Shown: positions 831 through 30,991 of the stretch, piece after piece | Position numbering within the stretch: the stretch's first letter is position 1 | Layout: every line of letters starts with the position of its first letter | Assembly (NCBI GenBank): GCA_003990765.1 | Contig: RBNJ01000241.1 | Span: forward strand, 1-35,758 | Direction: 5' to 3' | DNA from: Jimgerdemannia flammicorona | Lineage: Eukaryota | Length of the DNA stretch: 35,758 nucleotides | The notes under the pieces: generated by a model | The model's database searches: none | What the model was told of the DNA's origin: nothing | What the model saw: the letters and a program-made list of their open reading frames with translations, nothing else | Translations under genes and position numbers: made by a program

Positions 831-1083
831 AAAAAAAACCTGCTAATCCTCCAATTCGGGTATATACCAACGTGATACAAGAAAACAAACATCCGTTCTC
901 ACCTCCGTGTCCAAATCAAATAGCTCAACTCGCCTTCTTTCTTCCCTTCTCTCTCAACGCTAGTTGGTCTAGCGAGCATAATCCTAACGATCATGAAGAA
1001 TGTGTCTCCGTGAGGATTCCCGCGACAACATCGCCGACCTCCTCGACGGAGACGAGTTCCTCCCCAACCTCAAGAGCAACAAC

Positions 1084-1948
1084 AAATCGACACCCCCTGC
1101 ACCGTGCTACACACCTGGGACACCTCGAGGTTGAAAGGTTGCACTTTGTCGACGCTAAGGTGGATCCCAACGCCAAGAAGAATAATGGATGGACGCCGCT
1201 TCACCAAGCTGAGAATAGAAAAAACATCGATATTCTCTGACTTCAAGGCGGACGTCAACGCCAGTAAAGAAGACGATTGGACACCGTTTCACCTCGCTGC
1301 GCTGAACGAGCATGTCAATATTGTGAGGTTGCTCTTGGCCGACTCCAAGACGGACGCTAACGCCAAGACCAACGTCGCTTCACTGGGCTACATTCAACGG
1401 GTACCTCGAGGGTTGTGGGGTTGCTCTTGGCCGACTCCAAGGCGGACGCAAACACCAAGACAAACGATGAAACGATGCCACTTCACTTCGCTGCGCAGAA
1501 CGGGCACGTCGATATTACGAGGTTGCTCTTGGCTGACTCCAAGGCGGACGGCAACGCCAGGACCAACGATGGATGGACGCCGCTTCATTGGGTCATTGGG
1601 TAACGAACATGGAGTACGTTGATATTGTGAGGTTTCTCTTGGCCGACGACATCGCCAGACGAAAAGATGAATGGATGCCCCTTTACTTCGCTGCGCAGAA
1701 CGGGAACGTCGATATTGTGAGGTTGCTCGTGGCCGACTCCAAGGCGGACGCAAACGTCAAGACCAACAATAGAGCGGCGCCGCTTCACCGTGTAGGGCTG
1801 AATGGGTACGTCGAGGTCGTGATATTGCTCGTGGCCGCGGGCGTGAAGGCCAAAAAAAAAAAACGATGGAAGAACGCCGCTTCACACCGCTGCGCAGAAA
1901 GGGCACATTGAGGTCGTGAGGTTGCTCGTGGCCGAGTTTGATAAATGA
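1084..1948 (+). pseudogene. Ankyrin-repeat protein, frameshifted or fragmented
   Basis: About 8 ANK-like units of ~99 bp spread over all three frames (HPLHRATHLGHLEV, GWTPLHQA, WTPFHLAALNEHVNIVRLLL, MPLHFAAQNGHVDITRLLL, DGWTPLHW, MPLYFAAQNGNVDIVRLLV). Near-identical DNA repeats (gttgctcttggccgactccaaggcggacgc). Frame switches lack clear intron signals. Confidence 0.85.
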
Positions 1949-13323: not shown

Positions 13324-14539
13324 TTGGAAGTTACTGGAGATTGAGTGGTAACTCTGGTCAGATTATTAGTATCTTCTAGAGTATGGGAGATTTGGGGAAT
13401 ATAGAGAGGGGTCCAGATATTGGTACTTAAATTCTGCTCTACTAGATAACTCTTTACTATAAGATACTTAAGTAATAGACATTAGGTCTAAGGTTCTTAC
13501 TTAGAGAGAGAGAGGGCTCACTATTAGTGATTAATAATAAATACTAAAGTCTAATACTCAGCAAAAAGACTGAGAGGGTGAGGAGTGCTCAGTGAAGAGA
13601 GTGTATACAGTGGGCCTTGCATAGAGGTGGGCTGGTCTATTAGAGACTTAGAATATAAAGAATTAGAGAGTGTGGTAGATCTGACTAGAGGTGAAGAAAC
13701 TGCAATATATTCTGTGAGTAGAGAAGAGTGTGTAGGTATAGAGTATGGCAGTCAGACTATAGTAACAGAAACTAGAAGATGGAGAGACTGACAGTATTTC
13801 TGTTAAGACTGTTGTAGACTAGGAGAGTATATTAGTACTAAGATGGAGTATTGGATGAGGAGGGTATAATGGTGGTAGAGATTCAGAATATCTTAGAATA
13901 GCTAAGTTGATAGTAAAAGTTACTAAGAGTGAGAAGAAGAAAGGTAAGAATATATAGACCATTGAGTGCTATCTGGAGGACTGATATCTAGATCTAGTAG
14001 AGGGGCTGAGAGAATTAAAAGACCTGATGAAAGAAGAGGAGATTCTCAAGATCTTAGTGAGAGACAGTTTTAGGATGACTCTTATTGAGGGCAGACTACT
14101 ATATATGTATGGAACTTCTGAAAATAAATAATAGGGGTAGAGATAGTTTTGGAGGAGCTAAGGCTGATATATAATGAGATTATAAATTCTAGAGAGTAGA
14201 TAAGAGACCAATACCTGGGCCTAGTGATACTATTCTTTAAGAATAAGAGAAGGAGAGAGAAGTGAAAGAATTAACAATTAACATACTTCTAGATATAGAT
14301 CAAAAATTGATCACAAAGGTTATTATTATCCAGTTGTAGTATATCTTATAGAGTACTGAGAGAGAAGAAATAGAGCTTTATTAGAGGTCAGTTAATTCAG
14401 AATGAGATGGTCTGAATCTATAGTATCATTAAAGAGACTAGAACTGTAGATATAGATAGATGGCTGGTTTTTTTTAACTAGGAGAAGATATGTATATGAC
14501 TGAGTACAGAGGGTGTAGTTAGATGAAATACTAAAGTAT
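13324..14539 (+). mobile_element. Old hypermutated L1/Tx1-like LINE, left part (end of APE endonuclease to start of RT)
   Basis: Decayed translations align with the young LINE ORF2: EIEW*LWSDY (vs EVQWCPWSDH), RYWYLNSALL (vs RWRLNVALL), LLDIDQKLI (vs LLNVDRKLV), FN*EK (vs LDQEK). Confidence 0.8.
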
Positions 14540-14702
14540 TGTAATAGACCAAAACATACCACTTGAATTATAACTTAGCCAGATGACATGAACAATTAGT
14601 ATACTTACTTAGTATGATGTAACTTCCAGTATATCATAGTTACTCATATCCACCACACTTATATGTAATTAGCCAAGATACCAGATCAGGATTGTTTACC
14701 TG

Positions 14703-14775
14703 TGTCCTGAGGACACACTCATGTCCTGTGGACACACTTATGTCCTGCAGACACACTCATGTCCTGTGGACACAC
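14703..14775 (+). repeat. Four 19-bp tandem units in U3, each with a TGTCC-N3-GGACA dyad (same array at 29617-29689)
   Basis: tgtcctg(ag/tg/ca)gacacactca with period 19 (starts 14703, 14722, 14741, 14760). Confidence 0.9.
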
Positions 14776-14859
14776 CTGTACCTAGAGGACACACCCAAAC
14801 ATTACTGGAGATAGCAAATCTATAGTTAGCCACATAGTAACCAGATAGCAACCAACTTG

Positions 14860-14890
14860 TATAAATTACCCCAGAGAGAGAGTGAATAAA
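14860..14890 (+). promoter_or_regulatory. Putative LTR TATA box (14860-14865) and poly(A) signal AATAAA (14885-14890)
   Basis: TATAAA and AATAAA are conserved with similar spacing in both LTRs and in the diverged solo LTR (~12400-12433). Confidence 0.55.
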
Positions 14891-16062
14891 CCTCAGTCCG
14901 AATTGAAGTGCAAACCAAAGAAGCCTCTAAAGATTGAGCAATTGGTCCCTTTATTCCTACTCTGGTCCACTTTCCAATACAAAGATTAATTGGTTTGCTT
15001 GCCAGATAAGCCTGAAGATTTGCTGCCTAAGTTTAAGAAGAACTTCGCCACCTTTTGAGTAACCCACCACTAAAGGAATAAGCCACCATTTCCAAGTTAT
15101 CCTCCACCTTCCATAGAAAGCTGCCTTGCTTAAGCCAGTTTCCAATGCAACTTCACAGTGGAGCCAGTCTATGACATAACCCCATACAAACAAAGCCAGT
15201 CTTTAATGTAACTTTGCCAAGAGACCCTTTTCCAGTTGAAGCCATTGTTTTCGAGTTATCCATATTCCCAGTCGAAGCCACTGATTCAGGAAGAATCTGC
15301 ACCATCGTATTCCCAGTTGAAGCCACCAATTCAGGAAGAATCTATGCCATCCGAGTTATTTCCTAAAAGCCCGCCGATTCAGGAGAATCCGCATCATCTG
15401 CCATTTTTGAGTTATCTGCCACATTCCCAGAAGAACCCCGCTGATTTAGGAAGAATCCACATTACCCGAGTTACCCAAGTTATTAAATTATCCACCTCCT
15501 GTGACATTCAAGTTATTCGTCATTCCCAGTGAGCCTGAGAAGAATCCACCACCAGCATTATTCCTAGTTATTCGAATTATCCGCATCATCTGAGCTATTA
15601 TTCCCAGTAAGGAGAACCTATGCCATACATTCCCAGTGAGCCAAATCGAGCTATCTGCCAGAAATTGCATACTTTTGGGACTGTCACACTACACAGAGAT
15701 CATCATGCAGAAATCACATAAGGAGAACTGCTAAATTGTCAGACCGTCACACACAAAGGGATCATCATACTACATAAAGATCATTGCACCAAGACCATCA
15801 TCCAGAAATCACATACTTTTGAAAATTACCTCACTACACAAAATTGTACCATTCCCAGTTGACCCAAGAAGGAGAGATGTAAGTCGCCGCTACACCCAGA
15901 GAACAGTCCCAATAAGGAAATCACTTGTAGATATCTAGCTTTGACTATTATACCACTAAACACCAAGGACCTCAGGAATCTTAGAAGTAACTGGGGGCTC
16001 AAGCCAAACTACATTAACCTCCAACCTTGTAATTTGCCTCCATTGAGCCGGCACATTACATT

Positions 16063-16080
16063 TGGGGGCTCAACTGGGAA
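16063..16080 (+). promoter_or_regulatory. Primer binding site, tRNA-Pro type
   Basis: TGGGGGCTCAACTGGGAA begins 2 nt after the LTR and resembles the tRNA-Pro PBS TGGGGGCTCGTCCGGGAT. Two of the four differences are CpG-type transitions. Confidence 0.8.
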
Positions 16081-16099
16081 TATTTTAAAATCAACATGA

Positions 16100-18103
16100 C
16101 TTTTCAACTCACAAGAACCTATAGTCAAACTGGATACATTTGATACAACACCAACCTCTGCCACTACAGGAGAACCAGTCATCACTAGTATTTGGACAGG
16201 AAGAGAAGTAATCACCTCAAGACTTGCCAACTACCCAGCATCAGAAGGATCCCAATCAGAAGCAGGAGGCAGTACAGCCCGAAATCCCCAATCAGATCAA
16301 TCAGACAATACAGGCAGCCCTGCTAGAGATTTTGGAGAACTCACACAAGAACTAGAAGACCTTAGCACACAGACTCAACATTTTACAGCCAGACACCCCA
16401 CACCAGTCCCACCAATCTCACCAATAGAACCCCTACCACAACCTCTTGCAGAACCAGAAGTAGCTCCTACAAGAATACCTAGGCCTATTCCACCTCACCC
16501 AAGGACCAGAACACCATCTTCAAGATACCCAAGTACCCCCATCTCTAGTGACAGTTCAGAAAGTGAATCAGAATTAGAATCCGAACCTGAATCAGAATCA
16601 GAAGAAAGTGATGACAAAATGGCCACCTCATTGCCAACCTTTGCAGGATACCCAGAGGAGGACCCCAGAGAATTCCTTGATGGAATTGAAGAAATTGCAG
16701 CCTTGAGAAATCTCTCAGATGAAAGAAAAATCGCCATTTACAAAGCTCAGCTCAGAGAACCAGCCAGAGGAATTTTTCATCAAACAGCAAACAACCAAGA
16801 TTCAGAACTAGCAAGACAGATACAAGCAGCAATGTCTGATGAACTAGAATATGAGGCCATGGTCTACTGGCTCATTGAAAAGTATACAGGAAACGAAACC
16901 CACCACAAGGCTCAAGAATCTATCATGAGAATGAAGATGAATCTTGGAGAATCACCCAGAGCCTTCTTCATAAGAATCCAGAAGAGAATGCATACTACTA
17001 GGTTCAATGCCACCAACCAGGACATCATTGGACCAATGACCTTCATGAATGGAATTCCCCCAAACATTGCTCAATATGTCCACACTCTAGATATCAGAAG
17101 GTCTGAAGAGCAAGTAGATGCAGCCCAAGGATTCTTTGATGTCAGACAAGGAACTACTTGGAGTGACTATGATAGAAAAGAAGATAAGGAAGACATTCTG
17201 GTCAAAGCCCTACAAGGACTCCTTCAGGGACAAGAAAGATCTGAGGAAAGAAGGCCAGCCAAGGAAGGAAAGAAGGACAGAAGTGAAATCCAAGACCTCA
17301 GCTCCAAGATAGACTGATTGGTCAGACAGATTGAAAAACTCACCACATGTGAAAATTGGGACTACCAAAACAACAGAGGGTACCCACCACAGAGGAGCCA
17401 AGGTTATCCACCAAGAGATAATAGGAATTACCAGTAAGAAGAAAGAAGGTACTCTGTCTGAGACAGAGCCCAAGTCCAATGCTTCCACTGTGGACAATTC
17501 AGATACTATACTACTAAATATGACAACAAAAGAAGTGACCAAAGGGACTCAGAACTACCAAACCAAAGGAATGACACTCAGTACAAGAAGACTGAAGCCC
17601 ATCCTGTTGAAGATTTCGAGGAAGCAAGCAACAGTGAAGACTACAGTGACCTAGACTTGTATCCTACCAAGATTACCACCTGAAAGACAGTCTACCCAGC
17701 AGAAAAAAGAAAGAGACCTGTAGGAAGGCCATCCAGGAATATCAGCAGAAGAATCATCAAAGAAGAAGATGAAGAACATGAGGAGGAACAAGTTGAAACA
17801 CCCCCCCAAACCCCCTCACCTTTTGTCCCTAAGACAAATGAGTTGCCACCAGAAGATGAAGAAATGGAACAAGAAGAGTGGGAACCTGCTGCTCCAAAGC
17901 CTAAGAAGAAGTACACTCCGAAGACCATGCCTAGAGATATTTATAATGAAGCCTGGCAGAAGATTCAAGAAGCCAAGATGGAAGTCCCTCTCCTGCAGTT
18001 CTTGTAACTGACACCAGCTGGAGTCTGAAACAAATTGCTGAGAACTACCAGGTCTAGCACTGGCCAAGTTCCAATCCCACAGCAAGAACCAGCCTCCATC
18101 TCT
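16100..18103 (+). pseudogene. gag: Gypsy gag (capsid-like domain, decayed CCHC zinc knuckle, linker)
   Basis: One frame is open 16100-17317 (LPTFAGYPEEDPREFLDGIEE..., MNLGESPRAF) and continues through point-mutation stops. The knuckle reads CFHCGQFRYYTTKY at 17480-17521 (ancestrally about CFHCGQFGHYATKC). Confidence 0.85.
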
Positions 18104-18268
18104 TTTTTTTTTTTTTTTTTTTTATAGTCGCTTGGACTCCTTTATTCCACTAGTCTAGAAGAGAACACTATCCATGTATCTCTACAATTACTGTTAAAAC
18201 AAGAATGAACCCAACCCACAGCTATTCATAATAATACAAAGAAGGGCCATTCAGCCCACCCCTTCTTT

Positions 18269-21200
18269 TCACCTCACCCCCTTCTCACCGAGTACAAGGT
18301 GTTCCTGACTTCTCTGAACAATGTCTAACACCTTCTTCATGGCCCCCAACTGGTGCCTTTTCCCCTGATACCACCACTCTTGCACCACTTCCAAGAGTAA
18401 CCCCTTCCACCGCTCCACCAATTCTCCAACCCCCATCCAGGGATCCCTCTCAAACACCCATCACCAGTGCACCGCCATCAGTACCCAGATGCCGATAATC
18501 CGACCCAGGCCTCCCCAGATGTCCCCAATCTCTCCCACCAGGTGATGCTTGATCACTCAACAAGTGGGGCCCCCTGCCCACTCACTCTCCTCCCCCCAAT
18601 AACCCTCCAATGTCTGCCAAAACCCTTCAACCCCTGGACAGGCTGCCAGAATATGCTCCGGCGTCTGCACTACTCCCCCATCCAGCTCACAACACCACTC
18701 ACATTCCTTTACACCATCTTCCACCATCCACCCTATCCTGTACCCTAGCATGACGTTCCTCTGCAGAAATCGCCACCATACCACCCAGAACTTGGGTGGG
18801 GCAATCTTGAGTAGAGAGATCCCCCAGCCCCAAACCCGACCCCACTCCCATTCTTCTCCAAACCCAGCCTTCTGCCAACCAACCGGCCACCTCTCAAGTG
18901 GACCCGTCCGGATCCACTCCATCACCCCTGACAAAGAGTATTCTACCAATGGGTGGCCGCCAATACGAATCACACCAAGTTGCCACCATTGTCAATCTGG
19001 GTCCTCCTCTTCTTTGCCAGGTTCTGGGCCCATGAGACCCATTGCCAGCTAAGCTTCTACAATACCCCACCAAAATCCCCTATAACACAGCCTGCTAACT
19101 CTTCCAACCTGGAGCAAACCTCACATATCCTTCTGAACCTCGCTCCGGGAGCAGAACCAAACTTCCCAGTTGTCCATAGCCAGTTTGCTCCAGCCCTCCC
19201 CTCCTAATTCCGCCATCCGATAACCCCACCAGCCTCGGAGCACCTTTAGCCGCCTTCTGAAGTCCACCAACTCCAGACCGCCATCTGCCCTCACCATCAC
19301 CATAATTTCCCAGCTAATCTGCGATCTCCTTCCCTGCTACAGCCATCCTTCGACCACCTTCTTCAGCTTTTGAACCACCCATCCCAGAAAGTCCAGATGG
19401 TACCCCAAGTACCACAGCTTCGGTAACCAATATACATTCAAAACTACAATTCTCCCAACCAAGGAGAAGCCCCTTCCAGACCAGCCCACCAAGGCATTCT
19501 CCCACTTCTGTATCATTCCACACCACCACTCTTTCGGCAGCACTGTCCCATAAACTGAGAACCAGATGCCCAGATACTGAACTGCTTCCCCAGGTCTAAC
19601 CAATTGTCCAAAATGTCCAAGCTCCCCCAACCCAGCTCCAAGCTCCATAGTCTCGCACTTGCCCCAGTTCAGCTTCACTCCAGCCAGCGTCTCATACTGT
19701 CCTACCCCTTCCTGTAAGCTTGCCACATCTTCCACACTGCCTAACCCTACTACCATATCATCTGCAAAAGCCCCTAACTTCCAGACCACCTCCCCCATTT
19801 TCAATCCAGTAAGCCTCTCCTTCAACCATGCCAACAAGGGCTCCAGAGATAAAATGTAAAGCAGGGGTGAGAGAGGATCTCCCTGTGGCACACCTTGCCC
19901 TAAGAGGAACTCTGGGCCACTCCACCCATTCATCAACACTGCAGCCCAGCAACCTCGCACCAGACCCATCAGCTTTCAAGCCTCCTTCAGACCAAACCCA
20001 ACCTTCTGTAGAACTGCCTCCAAGTAGTTCCACCGCACCCTGTCGTAAGCCTTCTCCTGATCCAAAAACACCATCCTTCCATCTACTTGCCAGCTTCGAC
20101 AACCTTCCAAAACATTCTGCACCCATGCTGTGCTGTCTCTAATCTGCCTCCCCTTTACAAACCCTTGCTGTTCATCGCCCACTATTTGGCCAATCCATTG
20201 TTGCATTCTCCCTGCCAGAATCATGGAGACCAACTTCCTATCTACATTCAGTAACATTATGGGTCTCCAATTTCGCCACACGCGTCTGTCCCCTTTCTCC
20301 TTATAGAGCAGAGAGACTAGCCCTAAGGAGCCATTGCCAATCCAGCAGCCTTCCCCCAGTGTAAAGTTTGCCATTTCCACAAGCCATTCCCCAAGCTCAG
20401 TTTGAAACTCCATCCAGAACTCCCAAGGCAGTCCATCCTCCCCTGGCGATGAACCAGTCTGCGCCTTCCTCAGAACCTCTAACACTTCTTCGAGGGACAC
20501 CCTACCCATTACTGCCCTACCAATTGCCAGCTCTGCCACCACTGGTCAGCTGCTGACCAAATTGTTATTGTCCTCCAGTGCTGCCTCTCCCTCTGCCAGC
20601 CCTCCATCATCCTGCCATAGGGTGCACCATCGATCAGAAACCTCCTCTAGCATGTCTGTGATATCGGTCACCTCAGTACCATCCTCCCGCAATACGGAAG
20701 CCCAGCTGTGCCTCACCCTTCTGGCCTTCAAGATGCCAGACAAGTACTTGGTGGGTCGCTCTCCTTCTTCCAACCACTTGGCTCGCAATCTTGCCAGCAA
20801 CCCATCCACCACCCTATCTTTGGCAGCCTTCAATTCTGACCACAACTCTACTACCTCCTTGATCAACAGGGAGTGCCATTCCCCTGAGGTAATCTCTCCC
20901 TCTAAAAGTCTCAACTGCCAGCGCAGCCCCTGCTCTACTCTCCTCTCCCTATCCTTCTACTCCCTTCCCGCTACCTCTCCTACATCATGCCAATATGCAC
21001 CTGCCAGATGTTTAAATTTCCCCCACCACTGTGCTATCGATTGGCCACTATCCTTCCACTGTGCCACTTCCTGTCTTGCAATTTCCACAAACTGGTTCTG
21101 CTCCACCTGTCTCTTGAGAAGTGCCACATTAAGTCGCCATCTGCCTCCACCACCACTGGCCACCTGGAATCTCTCACACACCTCTACACCCCAGTGATCC

Positions 21201-21886
21201 GACCAGGGACACCACTGTACCTCAGTTGAATCCACAACATTACCCCAGCATTCTGCCACCAGAATCCAGTCAATCCTTGTACCAACCAAATCTTCACCAA
21301 CTGGATGCCACCTAGTAAATAGCCCTGACTTCTCACCTTGACATTATTGTACTCCATCAACCAATCCCATTTCCTTCTCAACTTGAAGCCATCGTGAGAG
21401 CCCTGTAGAGACCACCATGCCGACTCCACCATCAGACCTATCTAATGTCCTGTCACGAACTATGTTGAAGTCCCCTCCAAAAATGTCCAGCCTAATCTCC
21501 TCCCTGCTTTCCCAATCCAGCCAACCTTCCACCCATTGGTTTCGCTCTCTGCCAACCGCTGGCAGATATGCTGAGCCAACTGTAAGCCCATCGCCTGCTC
21601 CTCCTTTCAGTCTCCCCCAGACCAATCTATCACTATACCTCTCGACCTCCTTCAGCTCTCCTCTCCCCAAGCCAACCAGAATACCCACCTGCTCATTCCA
21701 CCCTGTGCTACCATACCATTCCTTGCTCCACTCCTCATAATCTTGCTCCCCATAGGCCCGAACGTCCTGCAGAAATATCAAGTCATACCTCCTGTTCTTC
21801 AGCCACCGAAACAAATGCCTCCGCTTCACTCCATCACGTAAACCATTGATATTTAGTGATAATATATGTAGACTGTTCATTATCAT
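18269..21886 (-). pseudogene. LINE ORF2: APE endonuclease, reverse transcriptase and C-terminal CCHC
   Basis: SLNINGL, LIFLQD, GGDFN, RIDWIL, WSDH; SSPGEDGLP, NWRPIMLLNVD, DQEKAYDRV, QGDPLSPLLY, AFADD, YLG; CEWC...EHILAAC. Several stops and frameshifts; 3' end approximate. Confidence 0.93.
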
Positions 21887-21898
21887 GAATATAAATAT

Positions 21899-23742
21899 TT
21901 AAATTTCCACTAGATTCGCCGCCACCTTCTCAGCCCTACCGCAAATAATAGCCTTCCATTTCTCGCAGATACCCCTCCAGATGCGTGCTCCATTCACCCC
22001 ATTGCAAAAGACCTCCACTCGCTCTGATGCCACCTTCCTGATTTCAGCCATACGGTCCTCATCAATCTCATATCCTTCATCATCCAGAAGTGCAACCACC
22101 ATTGCTGTCACCAACTTCGGCCCCTGCAGTGCTACATTGAGAAACCCTTCCCAGGCCTCCTGCGATCCATTAAACACATCCACTTCCTTGATATCCTCCT
22201 CCGCAAGTTCCTCAAGCACTGCCTGATACCAGTCATCAGCCGTCATCACTATGGGCCCCGGGGTGGCCGGCCTTGGAGTCCTACTCAGCTCCTGCAGCAT
22301 CTCTCTATCTGCCGATACATCGGAAGCCACATCCACCAGATCGTCCTCCTCAGTGCCCTTCTCCAGCCAGACCACTTCGCCCACCTCTGGGTATTCCCAA
22401 TGCACATTTGCTGCTCCCGCCATGCGAACATCCTCCAACTGGGTCTCCGGTACCACCTCAACAACCTCCTCAAAGCCCCCAGTGGTCGCCTCCTCCTTAT
22501 CCACCCACTTCCCTGTCACTGGTGTATGAGTAGAATCCTCCACACCCCCTAGTTGCGAAAGGACACCTCAGCCATCTCCACCTCTTCCATTTGACTCTTG
22601 GCCATCTCTGCTTTTTCCTCCTCCTCCCTTTTCGAGCTCTGGAGAACTGTCTGCAGATGCTCCCAGTTTGCCCTTTGCCACCTCTTCCTCTTCCCATCAG
22701 TCAGAATCCAGATCCAATCCTTGGCAAACTCCTTCCACTTCTGCTTCTGCAGTTCCTTCACAGCCTCTCTCTCCTCTAGGGCAACTAGCAATTCCTTCTC
22801 CTCCTGTTCCGAGCCCTTCCTTCTCCACACTTTGCACTCCTGCCCTCCGATGCGAACTACTTCTGGCCAGTCCCTCTCTTGCCCCATGGCCTCCTTGCCT
22901 TCCAGCCTCACTATTACCTTGCAGTTGCCATTCCTCAACTTGGTCCCCTCCCAGAACATAAACCCGAAGTCCACTATCTCGCCAAATGCCCCCAGTGCCT
23001 CTGCCACCATTCCTTTAGTCTCCTGTCTCCCCAATGTTGGCAGCCCTTCAATTACCAGTTGCACTGCCCACGGGTCCCACCTTAGGCACCTCGCCATGCC
23101 AACCTTGATGCTCTTGACAACCAGCCCTTTCTCCAAGGCCTTCACCATCTCCTCCTCCTCAACGAATCCTATCTCAACTGCCTCAGCTGATGGAATGAAC
23201 TTCAGCGATTCTGCCCCTGCAATCTCCTCTCCAACTAGCCACAAGACCTCCCTCGCAGACATCCCCAGCCCCAAAAAATTCGCTGATATGGCCCATGTCG
23301 ATACTGATTTGTGGAAGAAGGGATGCACCACCAGTTCACCAGATCCAGCTGCCATTGTCGCCTTCTTCTTGTTCTCCGATTCTCCAGCAGTCACCCCAGC
23401 CACTGGCCCAGCCCCAGGAAAACCAGTCCCAGCCACACCACTTCCGGACCCCTGGCCCTGAGCAGGCACCTGACCAGTCACCTGACCCGTCACCTGGCTG
23501 GTCACCTGACCCCTACCCCTGTCAACACTACGCCCCCCCTGCCCAACCCCCATGGGCCTAGTGGCTGCCCTCCTGCCCCCCATCACTGTGTGCCAACTCT
23601 CAACACCAGCCTGCCTCCCCTGACCACCCACTCCTCCTGCCCCTGCACCTGCTCCAACTGTCACCGCAAAACTCTTGGGGAGACCCAGACCAGGCCTCCT
23701 TCTCTCCAAATGCTCAGAGCTTGATGAACCCTGGGTCGCCAT
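21899..23742 (-). pseudogene. LINE ORF1 (putative nucleic-acid-binding protein) with one frameshift near 22560
   Basis: 397-aa and 214-aa ORFs just upstream of ORF2 (12-nt spacer); RRM-like segment (LVIEGLP...ALGAFGEIVD); coiled-coil and acidic region; GQVT repeats. Confidence 0.75.
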
Positions 23743-23935
23743 CTGACAAAAACTCTACCAAAATAGATGAGACTTGTTGTATATTGTAGCTAGACTCCTG
23801 CCACACCTTGCACACCAGAATAGATGACAGAAAAACTTGAAAACGTATTGCTTGTTGCGAAAAGATGTCCGAGTGGCTTAGCTTGCTCTGAATAATTCGA
23901 GCAAAAGGAGTCCGGGGCTCCCAGCCTCCATCTCT

Positions 23936-24330
23936 GTCCAAGCAGCTGAAAGACATATCAGCACCTACTTACATGGAGACATTGGAGGACAAAAAGAAAA
24001 AATCCTCATAGATACAGGAGCAGCTGTCTGTGTCATTGCCAAATGATTCTTGGACACCCTCTAATGGCCCATTGATGGACCATCTAACCTCAGCATCATA
24101 GTAGCAGATGGAGCCCGAACTCAACCCCTTGGAGAAGTATAAAATATCACCATCTCCCTTGGACACATTTAGTTCTCCATCCCCAAAGCTGTTATCACTG
24201 AAGCTGTCATCTATGATATGATTCTTGGCACTAACTGGATGAAGGAAATGAATACAGTTGTTGATATCAGCCAACAAGTACTCAAGTTTGACTACCGAGG
24301 CAAGAAGTACAGAGTTAAGATGACCAGCTA
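23936..24330 (+). pseudogene. Retropepsin-type aspartic protease of the Gypsy element
   Basis: ILIDTGAAVCVI (DTG at 24011), IIVADG, YDMILGTNWM; same frame as gag. Confidence 0.92.
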
Positions 24331-24451
24331 TGAGCAATCAAAGAAGAAAAAGAAGGTCACTATTCAGGAAGAATATGTCAGCAGTGAAGAATCCACCACA
24401 GAAGAAGAGGAAGAATCTGAAGATAGAAATGATCCCAGACTCAATCTCTGA

Positions 24452-25620
24452 ATCAATCTGGTGGATGACAGACCAGAAGACAATGTGTGGGCCAAAAACA
24501 CTATCCCTATCACTATTGGAGCCATTGCAGGAGAAGCCAAAGGATGCCCTACATACCTCAAGAGACACAAGTGTCCCAAGCACTCCTCCAAGATTATGGG
24601 AACAAGGAAATCACCTGGTACAGCCTGCCCAGAGTGCAGAAGGAAGAAGAAGAAATGCAGACATGTCCCAGAAACATGGCTGCAGAAGTATAAGCAATTT
24701 GGGGTCAAGAATCATCCAAGGAAGAAGAAACTTCCAACCAAGAAGTTCCTGAACAAGAAGGACCTAATGAAGAAGAAGTCTCTGAACTCATCCCCTGGGA
24801 TGACCCTCACTGGACACCACCTGAAGACAATGACCCCTGGAATACAGAGGAAGGACCCAGTACCATCACCATTATCCCCAAGAAAGAAACCCACCAAGAG
24901 AAAGCTTTCTGGCTAGGAAGATGTCCACATCAAATGATCTTCCACTCTCTCTGAGACTACTGCTATCAGTGTCATCTATTGGACCAACAAGAAAGACAGA
25001 GACCCCAGAGACCAGAACCCCCAACTACTCTTGCACAGTCTACCACCTTTCAAGAGGTCACTATAAGGTTACAAAGTCGATTTAGGGGACAAGGCTTCTT
25101 TACCCAGACAGAAATATACCCCTTGTCTACCCTTTCCCCAACCTATAACCAAGATGGGTACTGATTCCTAAGACAACAAGAGATAAATAGCCGGGAACAT
25201 CATTTCCGAGCAATGGGGTATTGCAACCATGGGAGACACCCTGATTGCCGAGACTGTAGACATCAGAAGATTCACCTCAGTTATGATGTTGTAGTGCATA
25301 CCTTGAAGAAAGGAGATAACTGAAGCAAGATCCGAAAAAGTCAGATTCGAAAAAGCCAGACCAAGAAGCCCGGAAAAAGAATTCTCAAGATCTACAATTT
25401 GGGAGAAGATATCCTAGCTCTCATCAGACATGCAACCCACCAAGGATGGGCAGAAGATACCACCAACTTCATGGAAGCCCTTGACCCTACAGGAAGGAGG
25501 GGAATCAATTACCTCCAAGACCCCTCCACTGGAGCCAGATGGCCACACCTCAACCTTAGAGCTTGGAGACTTTCTGCCAGTGGAGCTTCAGCCTTAGGAA
25601 AGCCCGAACTCAGCAAGGAT
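24452..25620 (+). other. Accessory polyprotein region with three Cys/His clusters and acidic tracts
   Basis: CPTYLKRHKCPKH...ACPECRRKKKKCRH (24545-24664); CPHQMIFHSL*DYCYQCH (24922-24975); CNHGRHPDCRDC (25222-25257). Frame change near 24680. Confidence 0.6.
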
Positions 25621-25626
25621 ATTGCC

Positions 25627-26031
25627 CAGTATGCCCTACTGCACCCCAAGGCCAAACCCCCGACCAAAGCCCACCCAGAAGATGTAGGATATGATCTTCA
25701 CAGCCTGGAGGACGAATCCATCAAGTCTGGAAAAACCTTCATGGTCAGAACCGGATTAGCCATGCAGCCACCTCAAGGAACTTATATTCAACTGACCTCA
25801 AGGTCCAGACTTGCCAGACAAGGAATAACTGTAGAAGGAGGGACCATTGACCCTGGATATACAGATGAAATCAAGGTTATCCTACACAACAGTAGTGCAG
25901 AATGGCACTGAATCATTAGAGAACAGAAGATTGCCCAAGCAGTCTTCATGAAGGTCAAGACCCCACAGTTACAGGAAGTCTCTGAACTAACTGAAGGAAC
26001 AAGACAAGCCAAGGGATTTGGAAGTTCAGAT
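25627..26031 (+). pseudogene. dut: Trimeric dUTPase domain within the Gypsy pol
   Basis: All five motifs are present: VGYDL, SRSRLA, GGTIDPGYTDEI, KIAQAV, RQAKGFGSSD. One TGA at 25909. Confidence 0.93.
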
Positions 26032-26458
26032 GGGAAAGAGATACATCTCCTTCAAGTCAACCACCTCAAGAAGAATGTTCCCCAGCAAGTATACCAGCAA
26101 CCAGTCAGACTACACAAGAATCTCATCCTGGAGTCTGGAGAACAAACCACCTTCGAAATATTTGCACCACCCGACCCCAGGAACCTTTTATTTGAACCCA
26201 AGGAAGATATCCCACACCTGGACATAGAGGGACACACATTCCCTGATAAAATGAACCCAGTACACTCCCAAGCAACCAACCAAAGTTGGGAGATCATCAT
26301 CCTGCCAAAAGGAACCATCATAGGACATCTGGTGCCTTTTCTCAACCGAACTCATAGGGAAGTTTATGAACTAAACCTATCAGGAAATGGCAAAAGGTCC
26401 CAGAGGCCCCTCTGCGACCCAGGAGACAGTGAAGCCTTCTACCAACATTGGAGAATAA

Positions 26459-27840
26459 TTGACACCCCAACAACAGCAACAACTAGTAGAACTTCTCAAC
26501 AAATATCAAGATATCTTCACCACTGATTATGGCAACCTGCCATACAACCCATCATATCACCACAGCATAAATACAGGAAGTGCAACACCCATCTGGCAGA
26601 AACCCTATAGAATACCCCATCACTTGAAGACATTCAAAAAAGAGCACATCCAAGAACTTTTAGACAATGGAGTCATCCGACCCTCTACCAGCCCCTGGGC
26701 CAGCCCTATACTTATTGTACCAAAGAAAGGAGGATGGAGACTCTGTGTGGATTACAGAAAACTCAATGCAGTCACTGAAAAGGATGCTTATCCTTTGCCC
26801 AGAATCAATGACCTTTTGGACCAGCTACAAGATACCAGATACTTCAGCAGTATGGACCTCTTCACAGGATTCCATGAGATCCCCATGGACCCCAAGGATG
26901 TTCAAAAGACAGCCTTCCTTGCTCTAGGAAAACTGTTTGAATACCTCCGAATGCCCTTCAGACTCTGCAATGCACCCCCCACCTTTCAGAGGATGATGAA
27001 TTCAGTCTATGCCCCCTTGATCCACCACTGTCTGATTGTATACATGGATGATTCCAACATCTATTCAGCAAATTTTGAAGAACACCTGCACCATCTAGAG
27101 GAATTTTTCAAGCTCACCCACAAGAATTACTTGAGACTGAATGCAAAGAAATGCTACTTTGGAAAACAGAAACTTGAATTTCTAGGATTCATGGTTTCAA
27201 AAGAAGGAACTCATGCAGACCCAAAGAAAACCGAGAAGATCAACAATTGGCCAGTACCCAAGACTCCAAAAGAAACACTATCATTCTTGATGCTAGTATT
27301 CTACTACAGAAGGTTTATCAAAGATTTTGCTCAAATCGCTGCCCCTATCTGAATCCTTCTCAAGGAAGGAGTGCCATTCAAATGGACAGAATCACAGGAA
27401 AAAGCCTTCAGGGAACTCAAGAACTGCATGACTACAGCACCAATCCTTGTGTGCCCTAATCTACAGAAGCCATTCATCTTGTATACAGATGCTTCTAAAG
27501 ATGGCCTTGGGCAGTACTGTCCCAAGAAGGACCTGATCAACAGCATCATGTGATAGCTTATGCAAGCAGAGCTACTAACTAGCAGCAGATGAACTATGGT
27601 AGCACCAAATTGGAATGCCTTGCAGTCATATGGGCAGTTACCCTGTTCAAGCATTACCTTATTGGAAAAAGGTTCACCCTGATCACAGACCATACAGCCC
27701 TCAAATAGCTATTCAACTATAAGAAACCTGCCAGAATCCTAGCCCAGTGGATTCTTATCCTTCAGGATTACAAAATCACCATCATTCACAAAGTAGGGAA
27801 AGCCCACAACAATGTTGATGTACTTTCCCACCAGTCCCAA
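26459..27840 (+). pseudogene. pol: Gypsy reverse transcriptase and RNase H
   Basis: SPWASPILIVPKK, WRLCVDYRKLN, YPLPRI, YMDD (27041-27052), FLGF, FILYTDAS, ELEC-like segment, LITDH. Stops and frameshifts. Confidence 0.97.
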
Positions 27841-27899
27841 TGAATCAGAGGAAGGGTGTCCTGAGGAACCACACCCTAAAGGGAGCTCCTCAGACTATC

Positions 27900-28919
27900 A
27901 AAGCACAAGAAGATCTCATCCGAAAAGAACATCAGAAAGCCCACCAAGGACAGACAAGCATAGAAGACAGAATTCAAAAACAATACCAACATTGGCCCCA
28001 CCTCAGAGCTCAAGTACAGGACATCATTCAGAAATATGATACCTGCCAGAAGTACTAAGGAAAGAAGAACTATCAAGCCCCTCTGCAACCAATTCCCCCA
28101 CCCACTCACATCTTTCAAAGATGGGGAGTAGATGTAATTAGACCTCTACCAGTTATACCAAGAAGAAACAAATATATCCTTGTATTTGTAGAACATCTGA
28201 CCAAGTGGCCTGAGGCTTTCCCAATGGAAATTGCAGATGCCTTAACTATTGTAGGCCTCCTCCATGGACTCACACTCAGATATGGACCCCCAGAAGAACT
28301 TATCTCTGACCAAGGCACAGAATTCATCAATAATATAATCACAAGTTATGCTTGAATTCACAAGATCCACCTCAAAAGGACCACATCATACCACCCCCAG
28401 ACCAATGGCATGACAGAAAGAATGAATCAGACTATCAAGAAAGGACTTGCTCGAGTCAACCCTACTAATTGAGACTTCTGCTTACCTGAGATCCTATGGG
28501 AAATTCAGAATACCCCTGCTATATCCACCAAACAAAAGCCATTCGAAATGATGTTTGCTAAGAGAATCAGAACTGCTGACCATGAGAATCTCAGAGACCT
28601 CCTCAAGAAGGCAGAACAGTTATGAAATCAAGCCCAAGGACAGATTATCAAAGCCCAGAAAAGACAAAAAAAGTACTATAACCAAAAACAGAAGGATCAG
28701 GAGATCAAGATTGGAGATCAAGTCCTAGTTTGGAGAAGCATGATTGAGACAAACTTTGCTGCCAAACTAGAACCAAAATGGGAAGGACCTTATCTTGTAT
28801 ATAACATCAGAGGAACCAGCATCTATTTAAGAAGCATAGATGGACAAAACCTAAGAACACCAGTACACATCAATTGCCTCAAGATATACTTCTTCTCACA
28901 CTATGAATCAGAGAATTAA
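27900..28919 (+). pseudogene. Gypsy integrase (HHCC, DDE, GPY/F; no chromodomain seen)
   Basis: HQKAHQG...YDTCQK, WGVDVI, LISDQGTEF, YHPQTNGMTERMN, KWEGPY, VHINCLKIY; stop TAA at 28917-28919. Confidence 0.93.
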
Positions 28920-29418
28920 CAACCACCTCCAAAATCTTGTTCTCAGTTCCCTCCAAGCCCTACCAGTTCCCCTGCCTCAGTTTTGGGAACCCAATGGAAC
29001 ATATCTTCAGAAAATCTGAGTTCATCAAGAGAACCTCACTTTGGCCAAGAGACTACTCCAGATCCACCAGCTGTAGGCATATTATGCAATTGGAGAATAG
29101 TTGTAGAATCTTCCTCTTCCAGAACTAGCCTATGTCTGAAACACCACTGGCCTAAACAGAAGGAATACTACTGCTGCAGACAGACTAGACACAATAATAT
29201 ATAAACAAAATCCTTCTGCCTTAATCCAGGCCCAGATTTTCCTGAATAATCTCCAAAGGATGATACTGCCCACCTACCTCAGCATTATTCACCAAGTGGA
29301 GATTCTATTTCCTGAGGAAGAAGAAGAGCCCCTGGAATGGAGTGACTATAGCTCAGATAATAATGATGGAATAGGTATAGATGCAGAAGCTGCTTATGCC
29401 TATTGGGATGATGACTGA
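28903..29418 (+). pseudogene. Candidate third ORF (~171 aa) between integrase and the 3' LTR
   Basis: The ATG overlaps the end of pol. A single frame with 5 internal stops; the last 92 codons are stop-free and end in an acidic tail (EEEEEPLEWSDYSSD...YAYWDDD*) just before the PPT region. Confidence 0.55.
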
Positions 29419-29457
29419 AGAATAGTCTGGGACAGACTACCCTTCAGTGGGGGCTGA
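29414..29457 (+). promoter_or_regulatory. Pre-LTR hairpin and atypical polypurine tract (AGTGGGGGCTGA)
   Basis: ACTGAAG-aa-TAGTCTG-gga-CAGACTA-cc-CTTCAGT inverted repeat, then a G5 run abutting the 3' LTR. Confidence 0.65.
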
Positions 29458-30987
29458 TGTAATAGACCAAAATATACCACTTGAATTATAACTTAGCCAG
29501 ATGACATGATCAATTAGTATACTTACTCAGTATGATGTGACTTCCAGTATATCATAGTTACTCATGCCTGCCATACTTATAATTAGCCAAGATACCAGAT
29601 CAGGATTGTTTACCTGTGTCCTGAGGACACACTCATGTCCTGCAGACACACTCATGTCCTGCAGACACACTCATGTCCTGTGGACACACCTGTACTTAGA
29701 GGATACACCCAAACATTACTGGAGATAGCAAATCTATAGTTAGCCACATAGTAACCAGATAGCAACCAACTTGTATAAATTACCCCAGAGATGAGAGTGA
29801 ATAAACCTCAGTCTGAATTGAAGTGCAAACCAAAGAAGCCTCTAAATATTGAGCAATTGGTCCTCTTATTCTCACTCCAGTCTACTTTCCAATACAAAGA
29901 TTGATTGGTTTGCTTGCCAGATAAGCCTGAAGATTTGCCACCTAAGTTCAAGAAGAACTTCACCACCTTTTGAGTAACCTGCCACTTAAGGAATAAGCTG
30001 CCATTTCCAAGTTATCCTCCACCTTCCAAAGAAAGCTGCCTTGCTCAAGCTAGTTTCTAATGCAACTTTGCAGTGGAGCCAGTCTACGATGTTACCCCAT
30101 GCAAATAAAGCCAGTCTTTAACGCAACTTTGCCAAGAGACCCTTTCCCAGTTGAAGCCATCATTTCCAAGTTATCTGCATTCTCAGTCGAAGCTGCCAAT
30201 TCAGGAAGAATTCACACCAACATATTTCCAGTTAAAGCCACTGATTCAGGAAGAATCCATGCCATCCAAGTTATTTCCTAGAAGCCTGCCAATTTAGGAG
30301 AATCCATGTCATCTGCCATTTTCAAGTTATCCACCACATACCCTGCTGATTCAGGAAGAATCTGCATTATCTGAGTTACCCGAGTTATTGAATTATCCAC
30401 CTCCCACAACATCTGAGTTATTCATCATTCCTAGTGAGCCTGAGAAGAATCTGCTACCAGCATTATTCTCAGTTATTTGAATTATCCACGTCATTCAAGC
30501 TATTATTCCCAGTAAGGAGAACCTATGCCATACATTCCCAGTGAGCTAAATCAAGCTATCCACCAGAAATCACATACTTTTGGGACCATCATGCTACATA
30601 GAGATCGTCATATAGAAATTGCATAAGGAGAACCGCTAAATTGCCAGACCATCATGCACAAGGAGATCATCATGCTATACAAAGATCATCACACCAAGAC
30701 CATCACTCAGAAATTGCATACTTTTGGAAATTACCTCACTATACAAAATTGTACCATTCCCAGTTGACCCAAGAAGGAGAGATACAAGTTGCCGCTACAC
30801 CTAGAGAACAGTCCCAATAAGGAAACCACTCACAGATATCCAGCTTTGACTATTATACCACTAAACACCAAGGACCTCAGAAATTTTAAAACATTTTGTT
30901 GCTTTTTGACAAAGTAACTGGGGGCTCAAGCTAAACTACATCAACCCCCAACCTTGTAATTTGCCTCCATTGAGCTGGCATGTTACA
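29458..30987 (+). repeat. 3' LTR (1530 bp)
   Basis: Direct repeat of 14540-16060; differences are mostly transitions plus a few indels (e.g. ~22 extra nt near 30892-30913). Confidence 0.96.
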
Positions 30988-30991
30988 GTAT

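Follow-up and report, generated by a model that had tools for sequence, protein, structure and literature searches.

The interval that separates pol from the 3' LTR of a 16.4 kb, dUTPase-bearing, gypsy-like retrotransposon, found in the window (the whole stretch of DNA analysed, 35,758 nt), is very probably a defunct copy of an authentic third gene, here called ORF3 (28903-29418). Codon comparisons show that ORF3 evolved under purifying selection in exactly the frame that a sequence-only reading had proposed. Taken as a whole, the explanation that best accounts for the observations, and a reasonably probable one, is that this dead gene once encoded an adaptor or activator. The features on which the argument draws are collected in Table 1.

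The element that carries ORF3 has two LTRs that begin with TG and end with CA, and it is flanked by the short duplication GTAT, as expected of an LTR retrotransposon. Its pol domains follow the order PR-RT-RNase H-IN of Ty3/gypsy, with the dUTPase placed between PR and RT. Pfam matches were obtained for RVT_1 (5.9e-31), dUTPase (5.9e-15), RT_RNaseH_2 (1.6e-14), Integrase_H2C2 (2.1e-8), and rve (1e-7); the protease match, RVP, was weak (0.015). No chromodomain was seen, and the last piece of the integrase gave a weak MLVIN_C match only. A search with the RT found no named relative above 50% identity among the best 120 of 3808 matches, and these 120 came from animals, plants, and fungi alike. 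ORF3 belongs to a multi-copy, chromodomain-less family of Ty3/gypsy-like LTR retrotransposons with dUTPase. In the gag position, the ORF at 16619-17317 had no Pfam match at E<=0.01. The element is interrupted by a LINE-like insert, flanked by the duplicated 15-mer CCAGCCTCCATCTCT (18089-18103 and 23921-23935), whose minus-strand ORFs matched Exo_endo_phos (1.7e-5) and RVT_1 (1.3e-11 and 7.6e-11) in Pfam. The 19-nt tandem array in U3 has a counterpart in the 3' LTR (29617-29689, 3.8 copies). Its units hold TGTCC-N3-GGACA inverted half-sites, which we infer to serve as an enhancer or binding site.

Table 1. Features of the retrotransposon and of ORF3 in the window.
Feature	Position	Strand	Basis
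Target-site duplication GTAT	14536..14539 (left), 30988-30991 (right)	.	Flanks of both LTRs
5' LTR (TG...CA)	14540..16060	+	blastn vs 29458-30987: 87.2% identity, 1544 columns
U3 array, 19-nt tandem repeats, 4.8 copies	14703..14794	+	Tandem Repeats Finder
gag-position region, decayed	16097..18103	+	Assigned by position only
Nested non-LTR (LINE-like) retrotransposon	18104..23920	-	Poly-T 18104-18125; 15-nt duplication CCAGCCTCCATCTCT
pol, decayed, ends TAA 28917-19	23936..28919	+	Pfam
pol domains	dUTPase 25324-25911, RT 26459-27352, RNase H 27353-27553	+	Pfam
pol domains, integrase	Zinc domain 27819-28058, core 28059-28355, C-terminal piece 28626-28919	+	Pfam
ORF3 pseudogene, 171 codons plus stop, five in-frame stops	28903..29418	+	Database relatives, alignment, pN/pS
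ORF3 segment for acidic W/Y-bearing tail (about residues 135-171)	29305..29415	+	Alignment, composition, activation-domain rule, predicted non-helical from residue 135
Hairpin with ORF3 stop codon inside	29412..29450	+	RNA fold -18 kcal/mol, z -3.2
Purine/G run, polypurine-tract-like, 4 nt 5' of 3' LTR	29446..29453	+	Sequence; role inferred by position
3' LTR	29458..30987	+	blastn vs 5' LTR

The sequence-only reading had described a hidden frame that starts at an ATG overlapping the pol stop, passes through five stops, and ends at the hairpin before the polypurine tract, and each of these elements was found. The frame runs from ATG 28903 to a terminal TGA at 29416-18 and overlaps the pol frame, which stops at TAA 28917-19, by 17 nt. 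Its in-frame stops are TGA 29017-19, TAG 29074-76, TAG 29098-100, TAG 29104-06, and TGA 29137-39, corresponding to codons 39, 58, 66, 68, and 79. The terminal TGA lies inside the hairpin, which 2 of 200 shuffles matched in folding energy and which sits just 5' of the G-run and the start of the 3' LTR. The 3' part, 29140-29418, is free of stops over 92 codons. This openness had been offered as support for a gene; it is real, but it is not unusual by itself, since 235 stop-to-stop frames of at least 60 aa occur in the window.

Relatives of ORF3 were found in the same frame by several searches. With phmmer against 1.84 billion representatives, seven matches were returned at E<=1e-3, of which five were true relatives in the ORF3 frame (65-157 aa long, E 6e-37 to 1.9e-16). 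Two repetitive proteins, P0007 and P0008, which matched in 7-8 stretches at E about 1e-5, were judged spurious. A word-index search returned P0009 (171 aa) and P0010 (172 aa), both of which align to 99% of the query, and a profile search returned 17 proteins in the ORF3 frame, adding the full-length P0014 (169 aa) and P0015 (183 aa). The database check that had been suggested for the repaired peptide gave 17 same-frame relatives, and four of them (P0009, P0010, P0014, and P0015, 169-183 aa) are open over the full length. All are predicted ORFs, on contigs of 506-2297 nt except one of 11,765 nt, so their openness is partly a matter of ascertainment.

In the alignment, the start Met falls in a common column in 9 of the 11 rows that reach the N-terminus, and a common end column is shared by 9 of the 10 rows that reach the C-terminus. 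The tenth, P0021, continues into sequence matching the hairpin region of the window, and at the other side P0002 reaches over the end of pol. These start and end columns are common to subfamilies that are only 58-62% identical. Conservation is blockwise and highest in the tail; the best-conserved N-terminal block comprises residues 9-27, with L9, Q10, L12, S15, S16, Q18, L20, P21, L24, P25, and F27 nearly invariant. When loci were searched with single ORF3 proteins, one metagenome locus (L001) was recovered, in which the pol C-terminus is followed directly by ORF3 and the ORF3 ATG overlaps pol by 4 nt (ATGA); the same search found no further loci in viral contigs or genome contigs. Several copies have an ORF on the sense strand at one position, after pol and before the PPT/3' LTR: the window and L001, and, judged by their extents, P0021 and P0002.

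Evidence for selection came from comparing the window with L001. Over 105 codons in the ORF3 frame, pS was 0.728 and pN was 0.231, giving a pN/pS of 0.32 (bootstrap 0.23-0.42, Fisher p 6e-15); because pS is near saturation, only the raw ratio is trustworthy. L001 was the sole independent DNA copy compared, spans 118 of the 171 ORF3 codons, and is itself decayed, with three stops. The ratio was 0.32 for codons 7-79 and 0.30 for codons 80-118, and the differences at the three codon positions numbered 38, 22, and 62 of 112 each (chi-square p 5e-5). The other five frames of the interval gave 0.51-1.81. As a control, the correct frame of pol gave 0.24, and its wrong frames gave about 1. Rather than the retained stops, frame-breaking indels, and neutral evolution against which the sequence-only reading had set its proposal, open relatives and a low ratio in the ORF3 frame were found. 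Together with the four full-length open relatives, this frame-specific purifying selection bears out that the env position holds a true additional ORF. Contigs of four sequencing runs were also aligned to the window (X1, X2, X3, and X11, with 38, 230, 5, and 18 short pieces). Among the 40 listed of their 193 differences, none hit the five stops, and the 15 within ORF3 (5, 3, and 7 by codon position) are mostly private to the window and so uninformative on selection.

The ORF3 product is predicted to be a soluble protein of about 19 kDa. Its highest Kyte-Doolittle 19-residue mean was 0.94-1.36 in the four full-length relatives, which corresponds to no TM-grade segment and agrees with the earlier statement that signal peptide and TM helix are missing. 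With a length of about 171 aa, no Cys in three of these four relatives (0-1 Cys each), and no Pfam match, the protein does not look like an envelope protein, as had been proposed. The N-terminal portion of about 135 aa is predicted to be all-helical. AlphaFold2 placed helices at 4-17, 34-69, 72-82, 86-99, 103-111, 113-116, and 121-134 and none after 134, in a model of low confidence (mean pLDDT 50.6 with 16 sequences; a model with 7 sequences gave 42.0), and the ESM Atlas's own model had a pTM of 0.68; the helical nature suggested from the sequence is thus also what the models predict. The net charge is -12 to -16 overall and +2 to +4 in the helical part, whose basic residues prevail only slightly and form no obvious cluster. 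The acidic and aromatic tail, likewise anticipated, is conserved in the alignment. It is 34-48 aa long and predicted to be disordered, with a net charge of -15 to -18, no K/R, conserved W/Y residues, and the motifs LEW (LEW.D) and AY.YW[DN]DD-end.

Similarity searches placed the protein in no known family. Pfam gave no family at E<=0.01 in 15 ORF3 members, a profile search of PDB sequences gave none at E<0.01 (the best, E 0.027, being a coiled-coil protein), and of 390 Foldseek matches in the PDB at E<=10, none reached E<=0.001. Neighbours in the Atlas were uninformative, their feature scores of 0.90-0.93 with 129-159 shared features being of the size that chance gives; the structural TM by query did not exceed 0.45, to helical hairpins of HisKA/HAMP type. 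Across Pfam, PDB, Foldseek, and the Atlas, residues 1-135 matched no DNA-binding family or fold. Two copies of the ORF3 protein were predicted as a complex with a score of 0.64, and one unrelated control scored 0.67. A comparison of ORF3 with the gag-position ORF of the element by hhalign returned nothing (probability 0.3).

These properties suggest a protein that would work as an adaptor, with the helical part holding a component of the element or DNA and the acidic-aromatic tail recruiting a host factor. Judged from its sequence features, such recruitment through the tail is fairly probable. A published composition rule for acidic activation domains requires a 39-aa tile with charge <=-9 and W+F+Y+L >=7 plus a diagonal condition (PMC10550315); the tail passes it in 9 of the 10 members that carry a tail, and 2 of the 235 window frames do so as a control, one being ORF3 itself. 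The precision of the rule is low, as 26 of 144 predictions overlap the authors' reference list (PMC10550315). In the favoured version, ORF3 would activate transcription from the LTR of the element itself, with the U3 region and its 4-5 tandem 19-nt repeats with palindromic half-sites as the target. This specific role is a tentative suggestion. Complex retroviruses encode transactivators such as Tas/Bel1 of foamy virus and Tax of HTLV, the latter acting on 21-bp U3 repeats. By analogy, ORF3 would resemble them in being a small gene 3' of pol/env, in its acidic activating end, and in the tandem repeats of U3; it differs in having no sequence or fold similarity to them (PDB, Foldseek) and no vertebrate-type retrovirus setting. 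The fullest form of the idea is that the gypsy-like retrotransposon of a soil eukaryote encodes its own transactivator, whose helical domain, as a dimer, would recognise the palindromic 19-nt repeats while its tail recruits host co-activators. We regard this as rather unlikely; if true, self-regulation of the Tas/Tax kind seen in complex retroviruses would have been invented independently by a retrotransposon.

Extra ORFs in the env position are common in LTR retrotransposons, and very few have a known function. ORF3 is a new ORF3 family of this known kind and provides a clean case: it is small, family-specific, and constrained by purifying selection, with conservation strongest in a short acidic-aromatic tail. 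Compact and amenable to mutation, this tail offers a way to identify the host factor on which the element would depend, and naturally open copies exist for direct assays. One of the closest arrangements described is that of bdelloid rotifer elements, which are gypsy-like with the order PR-dUTPase-RT-RH-IN and carry family-specific third ORFs, including non-envelope types, one of them labelled CC by the authors (PMC5408684). The characterised rotifer ORF3s in that source are env-like, GDSL esterase, DEDDy exonuclease, or TM proteins (PMC5408684). None of these families was detected in ORF3 by Pfam, and the CC type was compared by description only. In fungi, dUTPase-bearing Gypsy elements such as PosPlaTy3-5 of Postia placenta have the dUTPase between protease and RT, as here, and for some fungal elements further ORFs with no assigned function are noted in a figure legend (PMC2864245). 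Unlike the ORF3 element, those of the PosPlaTy3-5 type bear a chromodomain, a comparison made by description and not by sequence (PMC2864245). The TRP28 ORFs of plant Retand, a non-chromoviral gypsy, are conserved and possibly regulatory extra ORFs in the gap from pol to the 3' LTR; they lie antisense in an interval of 2.9-6.6 kb (PMC11963269), whereas ORF3 lies on the sense strand and fills 0.5 kb. Searches of the literature on extra ORFs of LTR retrotransposons, supplements aside, yielded no account of the ORF3 family or of such a retrotransposon-encoded transactivator.

ORF3 could also be a real accessory gene whose product is an adaptor for trafficking or RNA export, analogous to CERV of Cer1 or retroviral Rev, or a hook that ties the particle to a motor or to actin through its W-acidic tail; we think this improbable, although worth weighing. 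The N-terminal block 9-27 is rich in Leu and Pro, and we take it to resemble an export signal. The tail motifs LEW.D and the YW[DN]DD end are presumably similar to the W-acidic motifs of motor adaptors and to the acidic-W termini of proteins that activate Arp2/3. Kinesin light chains are known as an animal feature, which counts against a motor hook. A precedent is the env-position ORF of the C. elegans Ty3/gypsy element Cer1, which encodes CERV, a protein required for export of genomic RNA (PMC10309623). CERV is described as a protein of 517 aa with helical stretches, two globular domains, and a region rich in Cys; it shows no homology beyond its own group, and its mRNA is spliced from five exons and has exons in common with gag (PMC10309623). 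ORF3 differs from it in its size of about 171 aa, its own conserved Met overlapping the pol stop, and its acidic W/Y tail. Its relatives, at 169-183 aa with 0-1 Cys, consist of one helical part plus the tail, and they lack a Cys-rich region. Moreover, no basic RNA-binding stretch is present and the protein is acidic overall, which argues against an RNA-export adaptor.

A role as a decoy or anti-silencing factor, raised in the sequence-only reading alongside an activator, appears quite unlikely. In such a role the tail would imitate nucleic acid or capture basic proteins of host restriction or chromatin, for which its strong negative charge over 34-48 residues without K/R would be suited. The element has clearly been targeted by the host, with C-to-T decay and a loss of CpG restricted to the transposable element. 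However, the conserved aromatics and the fixed C-terminal end indicate a specific peptide motif over bulk charge, and no likeness to known inhibitor families was found by Pfam and PDB searches.

That the interval is no separate gene and instead a frameshifted C-terminal extension of pol/integrase is highly improbable. In the window, the pol frame is open for 94 codons past its stop (28920-29204), overlapping the open 3' half of ORF3, and an extension would need one stop and one frameshift where ORF3 needs five stops. The pol frame of L001, in contrast, has four stops within 116 codons after the pol stop, and pN/pS in the pol frame is 1.26 against 0.32 in the ORF3 frame; on these two grounds the extension was rejected. 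The relatives also begin with Met at the ORF3 ATG, and phmmer, run with no limit on protein length, returned no fusion of pol with ORF3. It is equally hard to credit that a non-coding spacer, open by chance in some copies, separates pol from the PPT, as the 235 frames of the window and the listing of open frames only in databases might suggest; this is contradicted by the frame-specific synonymous excess, by start and end columns common to divergent subfamilies, and by conservation that peaks in the tail.

The genuine third gene was lost from the window copy by the same transition-driven decay that broke pol, as the pattern of stops and substitutions shows. The pol frame is disrupted by stops and frameshifts, with 6 stops in the 396 codons aligned to L001; the stop density of ORF3 (5 in 171) does not differ from this (Fisher p 0.32). 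Between the two LTRs, 156 transitions and 6 transversions were counted in 1507 gap-free columns (K2P 0.121), and the CpG observed/expected ratio was 0.10-0.16 within the element and 0.78-0.99 in the flanks. The ORF3 proteins of the relatives contain 12-16 Gln within the first 79 residues and 3-9 in the remainder, which fits the clustering of the stops in that half. The stops are thus explicable by transition-driven decay of a Gln-rich sequence, and the gene is still recognisable from a five-stop frame in a 13%-diverged dead copy.

ORF3, the candidate third gene behind pol, is a genuine gene, and the sequence-only reading which proposed it was essentially right. The frame is present in the window copy, from an ATG at 28903 to a terminal TGA at 29416-18, together with the five in-frame stops that had been listed (codons 39, 58, 66, 68, and 79). 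The 92-codon half after the last of these is open, which means little alone because the window holds 235 stop-to-stop frames of at least 60 aa. As had also been described, ORF3 ends at a hairpin (-18 kcal/mol, z -3.2), inside which its final codons fall; a G-run and then the 3' LTR follow.

Selection was examined against L001, an independent metagenome contig in which the pol C-terminus is directly followed by the first 117 ORF3 codons. Its pol is 81.5% identical to that of the window, and its ORF3 is likewise decayed, with three stops, one of which shares its codon with the first stop of the window frame; the remaining four stops of that frame are absent from L001. Nei-Gojobori counts on a protein-guided codon alignment of the two copies gave pS 0.728 and pN 0.231 in the ORF3 frame, or a pN/pS of 0.32 (bootstrap 0.23-0.42; Fisher p 6e-15), quoted raw because pS is near saturation. 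This outcome of a check named beforehand shows that ORF3 evolved under purifying selection in the proposed frame. The ratio is 0.32 in the stop-ridden first half and 0.30 in the part after it, and differences at codon positions 1/2/3 number 38/22/62. The five other frames gave 0.51-1.81, the lowest value being that of the mirror antisense frame, which carries 6 and 10 stops. The positive control, pol, gave 0.24 when read in its true frame and about 1 when read in wrong frames.

Relatives were sought, as had been suggested, with the read-through peptide (X for every stop) by phmmer among 1.84 billion representative proteins without restriction on length. At E ≤ 1e-3 seven matches were found, comprising five clear same-frame relatives (E 6e-37 to 1.9e-16, 65-157 aa) and two repetitive proteins judged spurious. 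A word-index search added proteins of 171 and 172 aa with 99% query coverage and 64-67% identity, and the profile search total came to 17 proteins. Four are open at full length (171, 172, 169, and 183 aa), although this openness is partly ascertainment because predicted proteins are open by construction. In the alignment, an N-terminal Met occupies a common column in 9 of the 11 rows reaching the N-terminus, and 9 of the 10 rows reaching the C-terminus end at a common column; the remaining row continues into residues matching the window hairpin region. The relatives form two subgroups (58-62% identity between, 75% within). In both, the tail is the best-conserved part, with a block near LEW and an AY.YW[DN]DD end, and a second, Leu/Pro-rich block spans residues 9-27. 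Run contigs labelled soil metagenome and 'organism A' contain near-identical and diverged family pieces (230 in run X2, 41 of them at ≥99%), which indicates a multi-copy element family of mixed age. Of the 3808 RT matches, none of the 120 listed exceeds 50% identity, and within these the family appears to have no close annotated relative.

The claimed overlap of the ORF3 ATG with the pol frame measures 17 nt in the window (28903-28919). In L001 it is a 4-nt ATGA (1216-1219), and the frame of pol relative to ORF3 differs between the copies; the pol C-terminus is therefore variable and the ORF3 start kept. This geometry would be compatible with expression either by re-initiation or by spliced RNA. 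Cheaper at first sight than reading ORF3 through five stops is a pol that continues 94 codons past its own stop and then shifts into the open ORF3 half, but this fails, as the post-stop pol frame has 4 stops in 116 codons of L001 and a pN/pS of 1.26, and phmmer found no fused pol-ORF3 protein of any length among the 1.84 billion representatives. The open pol stretch at 28920-29204 is a chance, neutral feature of the window copy.

The window gypsy copy is old and dead. Its pol frame is interrupted by stops and frameshifts, and its LTRs are 87.2% identical (1544 columns), differing by 156 transitions vs 6 transversions (K2P 0.121). The gypsy element has a CpG observed/expected of 0.10-0.16, the nested LINE 0.33, and the flanks 0.78-0.99; TpA is not increased. 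Transition bias and CpG loss point to TE-targeted cytosine methylation and deamination, not classical CpA-type RIP. Stop density in this copy does not differ between ORF3 (5/171 codons) and pol (6/396; Fisher p 0.32). ORF3 relatives contain 12-16 Gln within the first 79 residues vs 3-9 in the remainder, and because decay was almost purely by transitions, this Gln-rich half was more exposed to stop-creating changes.

Features of the window
Feature	Position	Strand	Evidence or remark
LTR retrotransposon (single element)	14540-30987		LTRs and target-site duplication
5' LTR	14540-16060		TG...CA ends
3' LTR	29458-30987		TG...CA ends
U3 19-nt repeat arrays	14703-14794 and 29617-29689		~80-160 nt upstream of TATAAAT motif
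Primer-binding position	16061-16079		directly 3' of 5' LTR
Stretch similar to primer-binding start	15993-16011		~70 nt upstream, within LTR
Nested LINE-like non-LTR retrotransposon, 5.8 kb	18104-23920	minus	endonuclease and RT matches, poly-A tail, 15-nt duplication
ORF1-position frame of LINE-like insert	22549-23754		open, 401 aa
P0013	4406-8074	+	intact ORF, 1222 aa
Four diverged direct repeats	1057-1787		~147 nt each, spacing ~190-200 nt

The window appears to be eukaryotic DNA. A GTAT duplication lies on both sides of the gypsy-element insertion. Internally, the gag position is followed by protease, dUTPase (Pfam E 5.9e-15), RT (E 5.9e-31), RNase H, and the zinc and core domains of integrase; the order is that of Ty3/gypsy elements, with dUTPase placed between protease and RT. 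No chromodomain was seen among the Pfam matches of the internal part. Gypsy elements with a dUTPase have been described in basidiomycetes, a truffle, and bdelloid rotifers (PMC2864245, PMC5408684). The primer-binding position begins TTTGGGGGCTCAA, the similar stretch within the LTR is GGGGGCTCAA, and no tRNA gene matching the primer-binding-position sequence was found in the window. The LINE-like insert sits between gag and protease, with CCAGCCTCCATCTCT as its target duplication and its poly-A tail seen as poly-T at 18104-18125; its ORF1-position frame has no Pfam match.

Database comparison of ORF3 gave no Pfam family at E ≤ 0.01 (15 members). The best PDB sequence match had an E of 0.027, Foldseek found nothing at E ≤ 0.001, and Atlas neighbours scored within chance range. 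The sequence-only reading had described a helical protein lacking a TM helix and ending in an acidic/aromatic tail, and each part of this description held. No hydrophobic segment occurs in the full-length relatives, which contain 0-1 Cys. The AlphaFold2 prediction, with a low pLDDT of 50.6, places seven helices within the first 134 residues and no structure beyond them; for P0009, a full-length relative, the model in the ESM Atlas has a pTM of 0.68. The N-terminal 135 residues carry a net charge of +2 to +4, and the tail (34-48 residues) has a net charge of -15 to -18, no K/R, and 3-5 aromatics.

The modelled architecture fits an adaptor, whose helical folded part would grip an element component or DNA and whose disordered acidic-aromatic tail would recruit a host factor. 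In 9/10 members the tail has the composition that a published rule sets for acidic activation domains; among the 235 control frames two have it, ORF3 itself being one. The precision of this rule is low, with 26/144 predictions overlapping the authors' reference list (PMC10550315). U3 of both LTRs contains a 19-nt unit repeated in tandem 3.8-4.8 times, with half-sites in inverted orientation (TGTCC-N3-GGACA), an arrangement that resembles an enhancer to which a dimeric DNA-binding protein would bind. Since these units lie upstream of TATAAAT, the favoured, though still doubtful, suggestion is that the ORF3 product activates its own LTR. It may instead be an export or trafficking adaptor, or a decoy.

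Extra env-position ORFs are already known in LTR retrotransposons (PMC10309623, PMC5408684, PMC2864245, PMC11963269). The nearest functional analogue is Cer1 CERV, which differs from ORF3 in size, in domains, and probably in splicing (PMC10309623). ORF3 is a new family within this known class, represented in the window by a dead copy.

Outside the element, the ORF P0013 matches no Pfam family at E ≤ 0.01, and the C-terminal third of its sequence suggests several membrane helices, possibly of ion-channel type. Because the flanking DNA there has a CpG observed/expected of about 1, P0013 probably represents an exon of a host gene. The four direct repeats lie in a GC-richer stretch.
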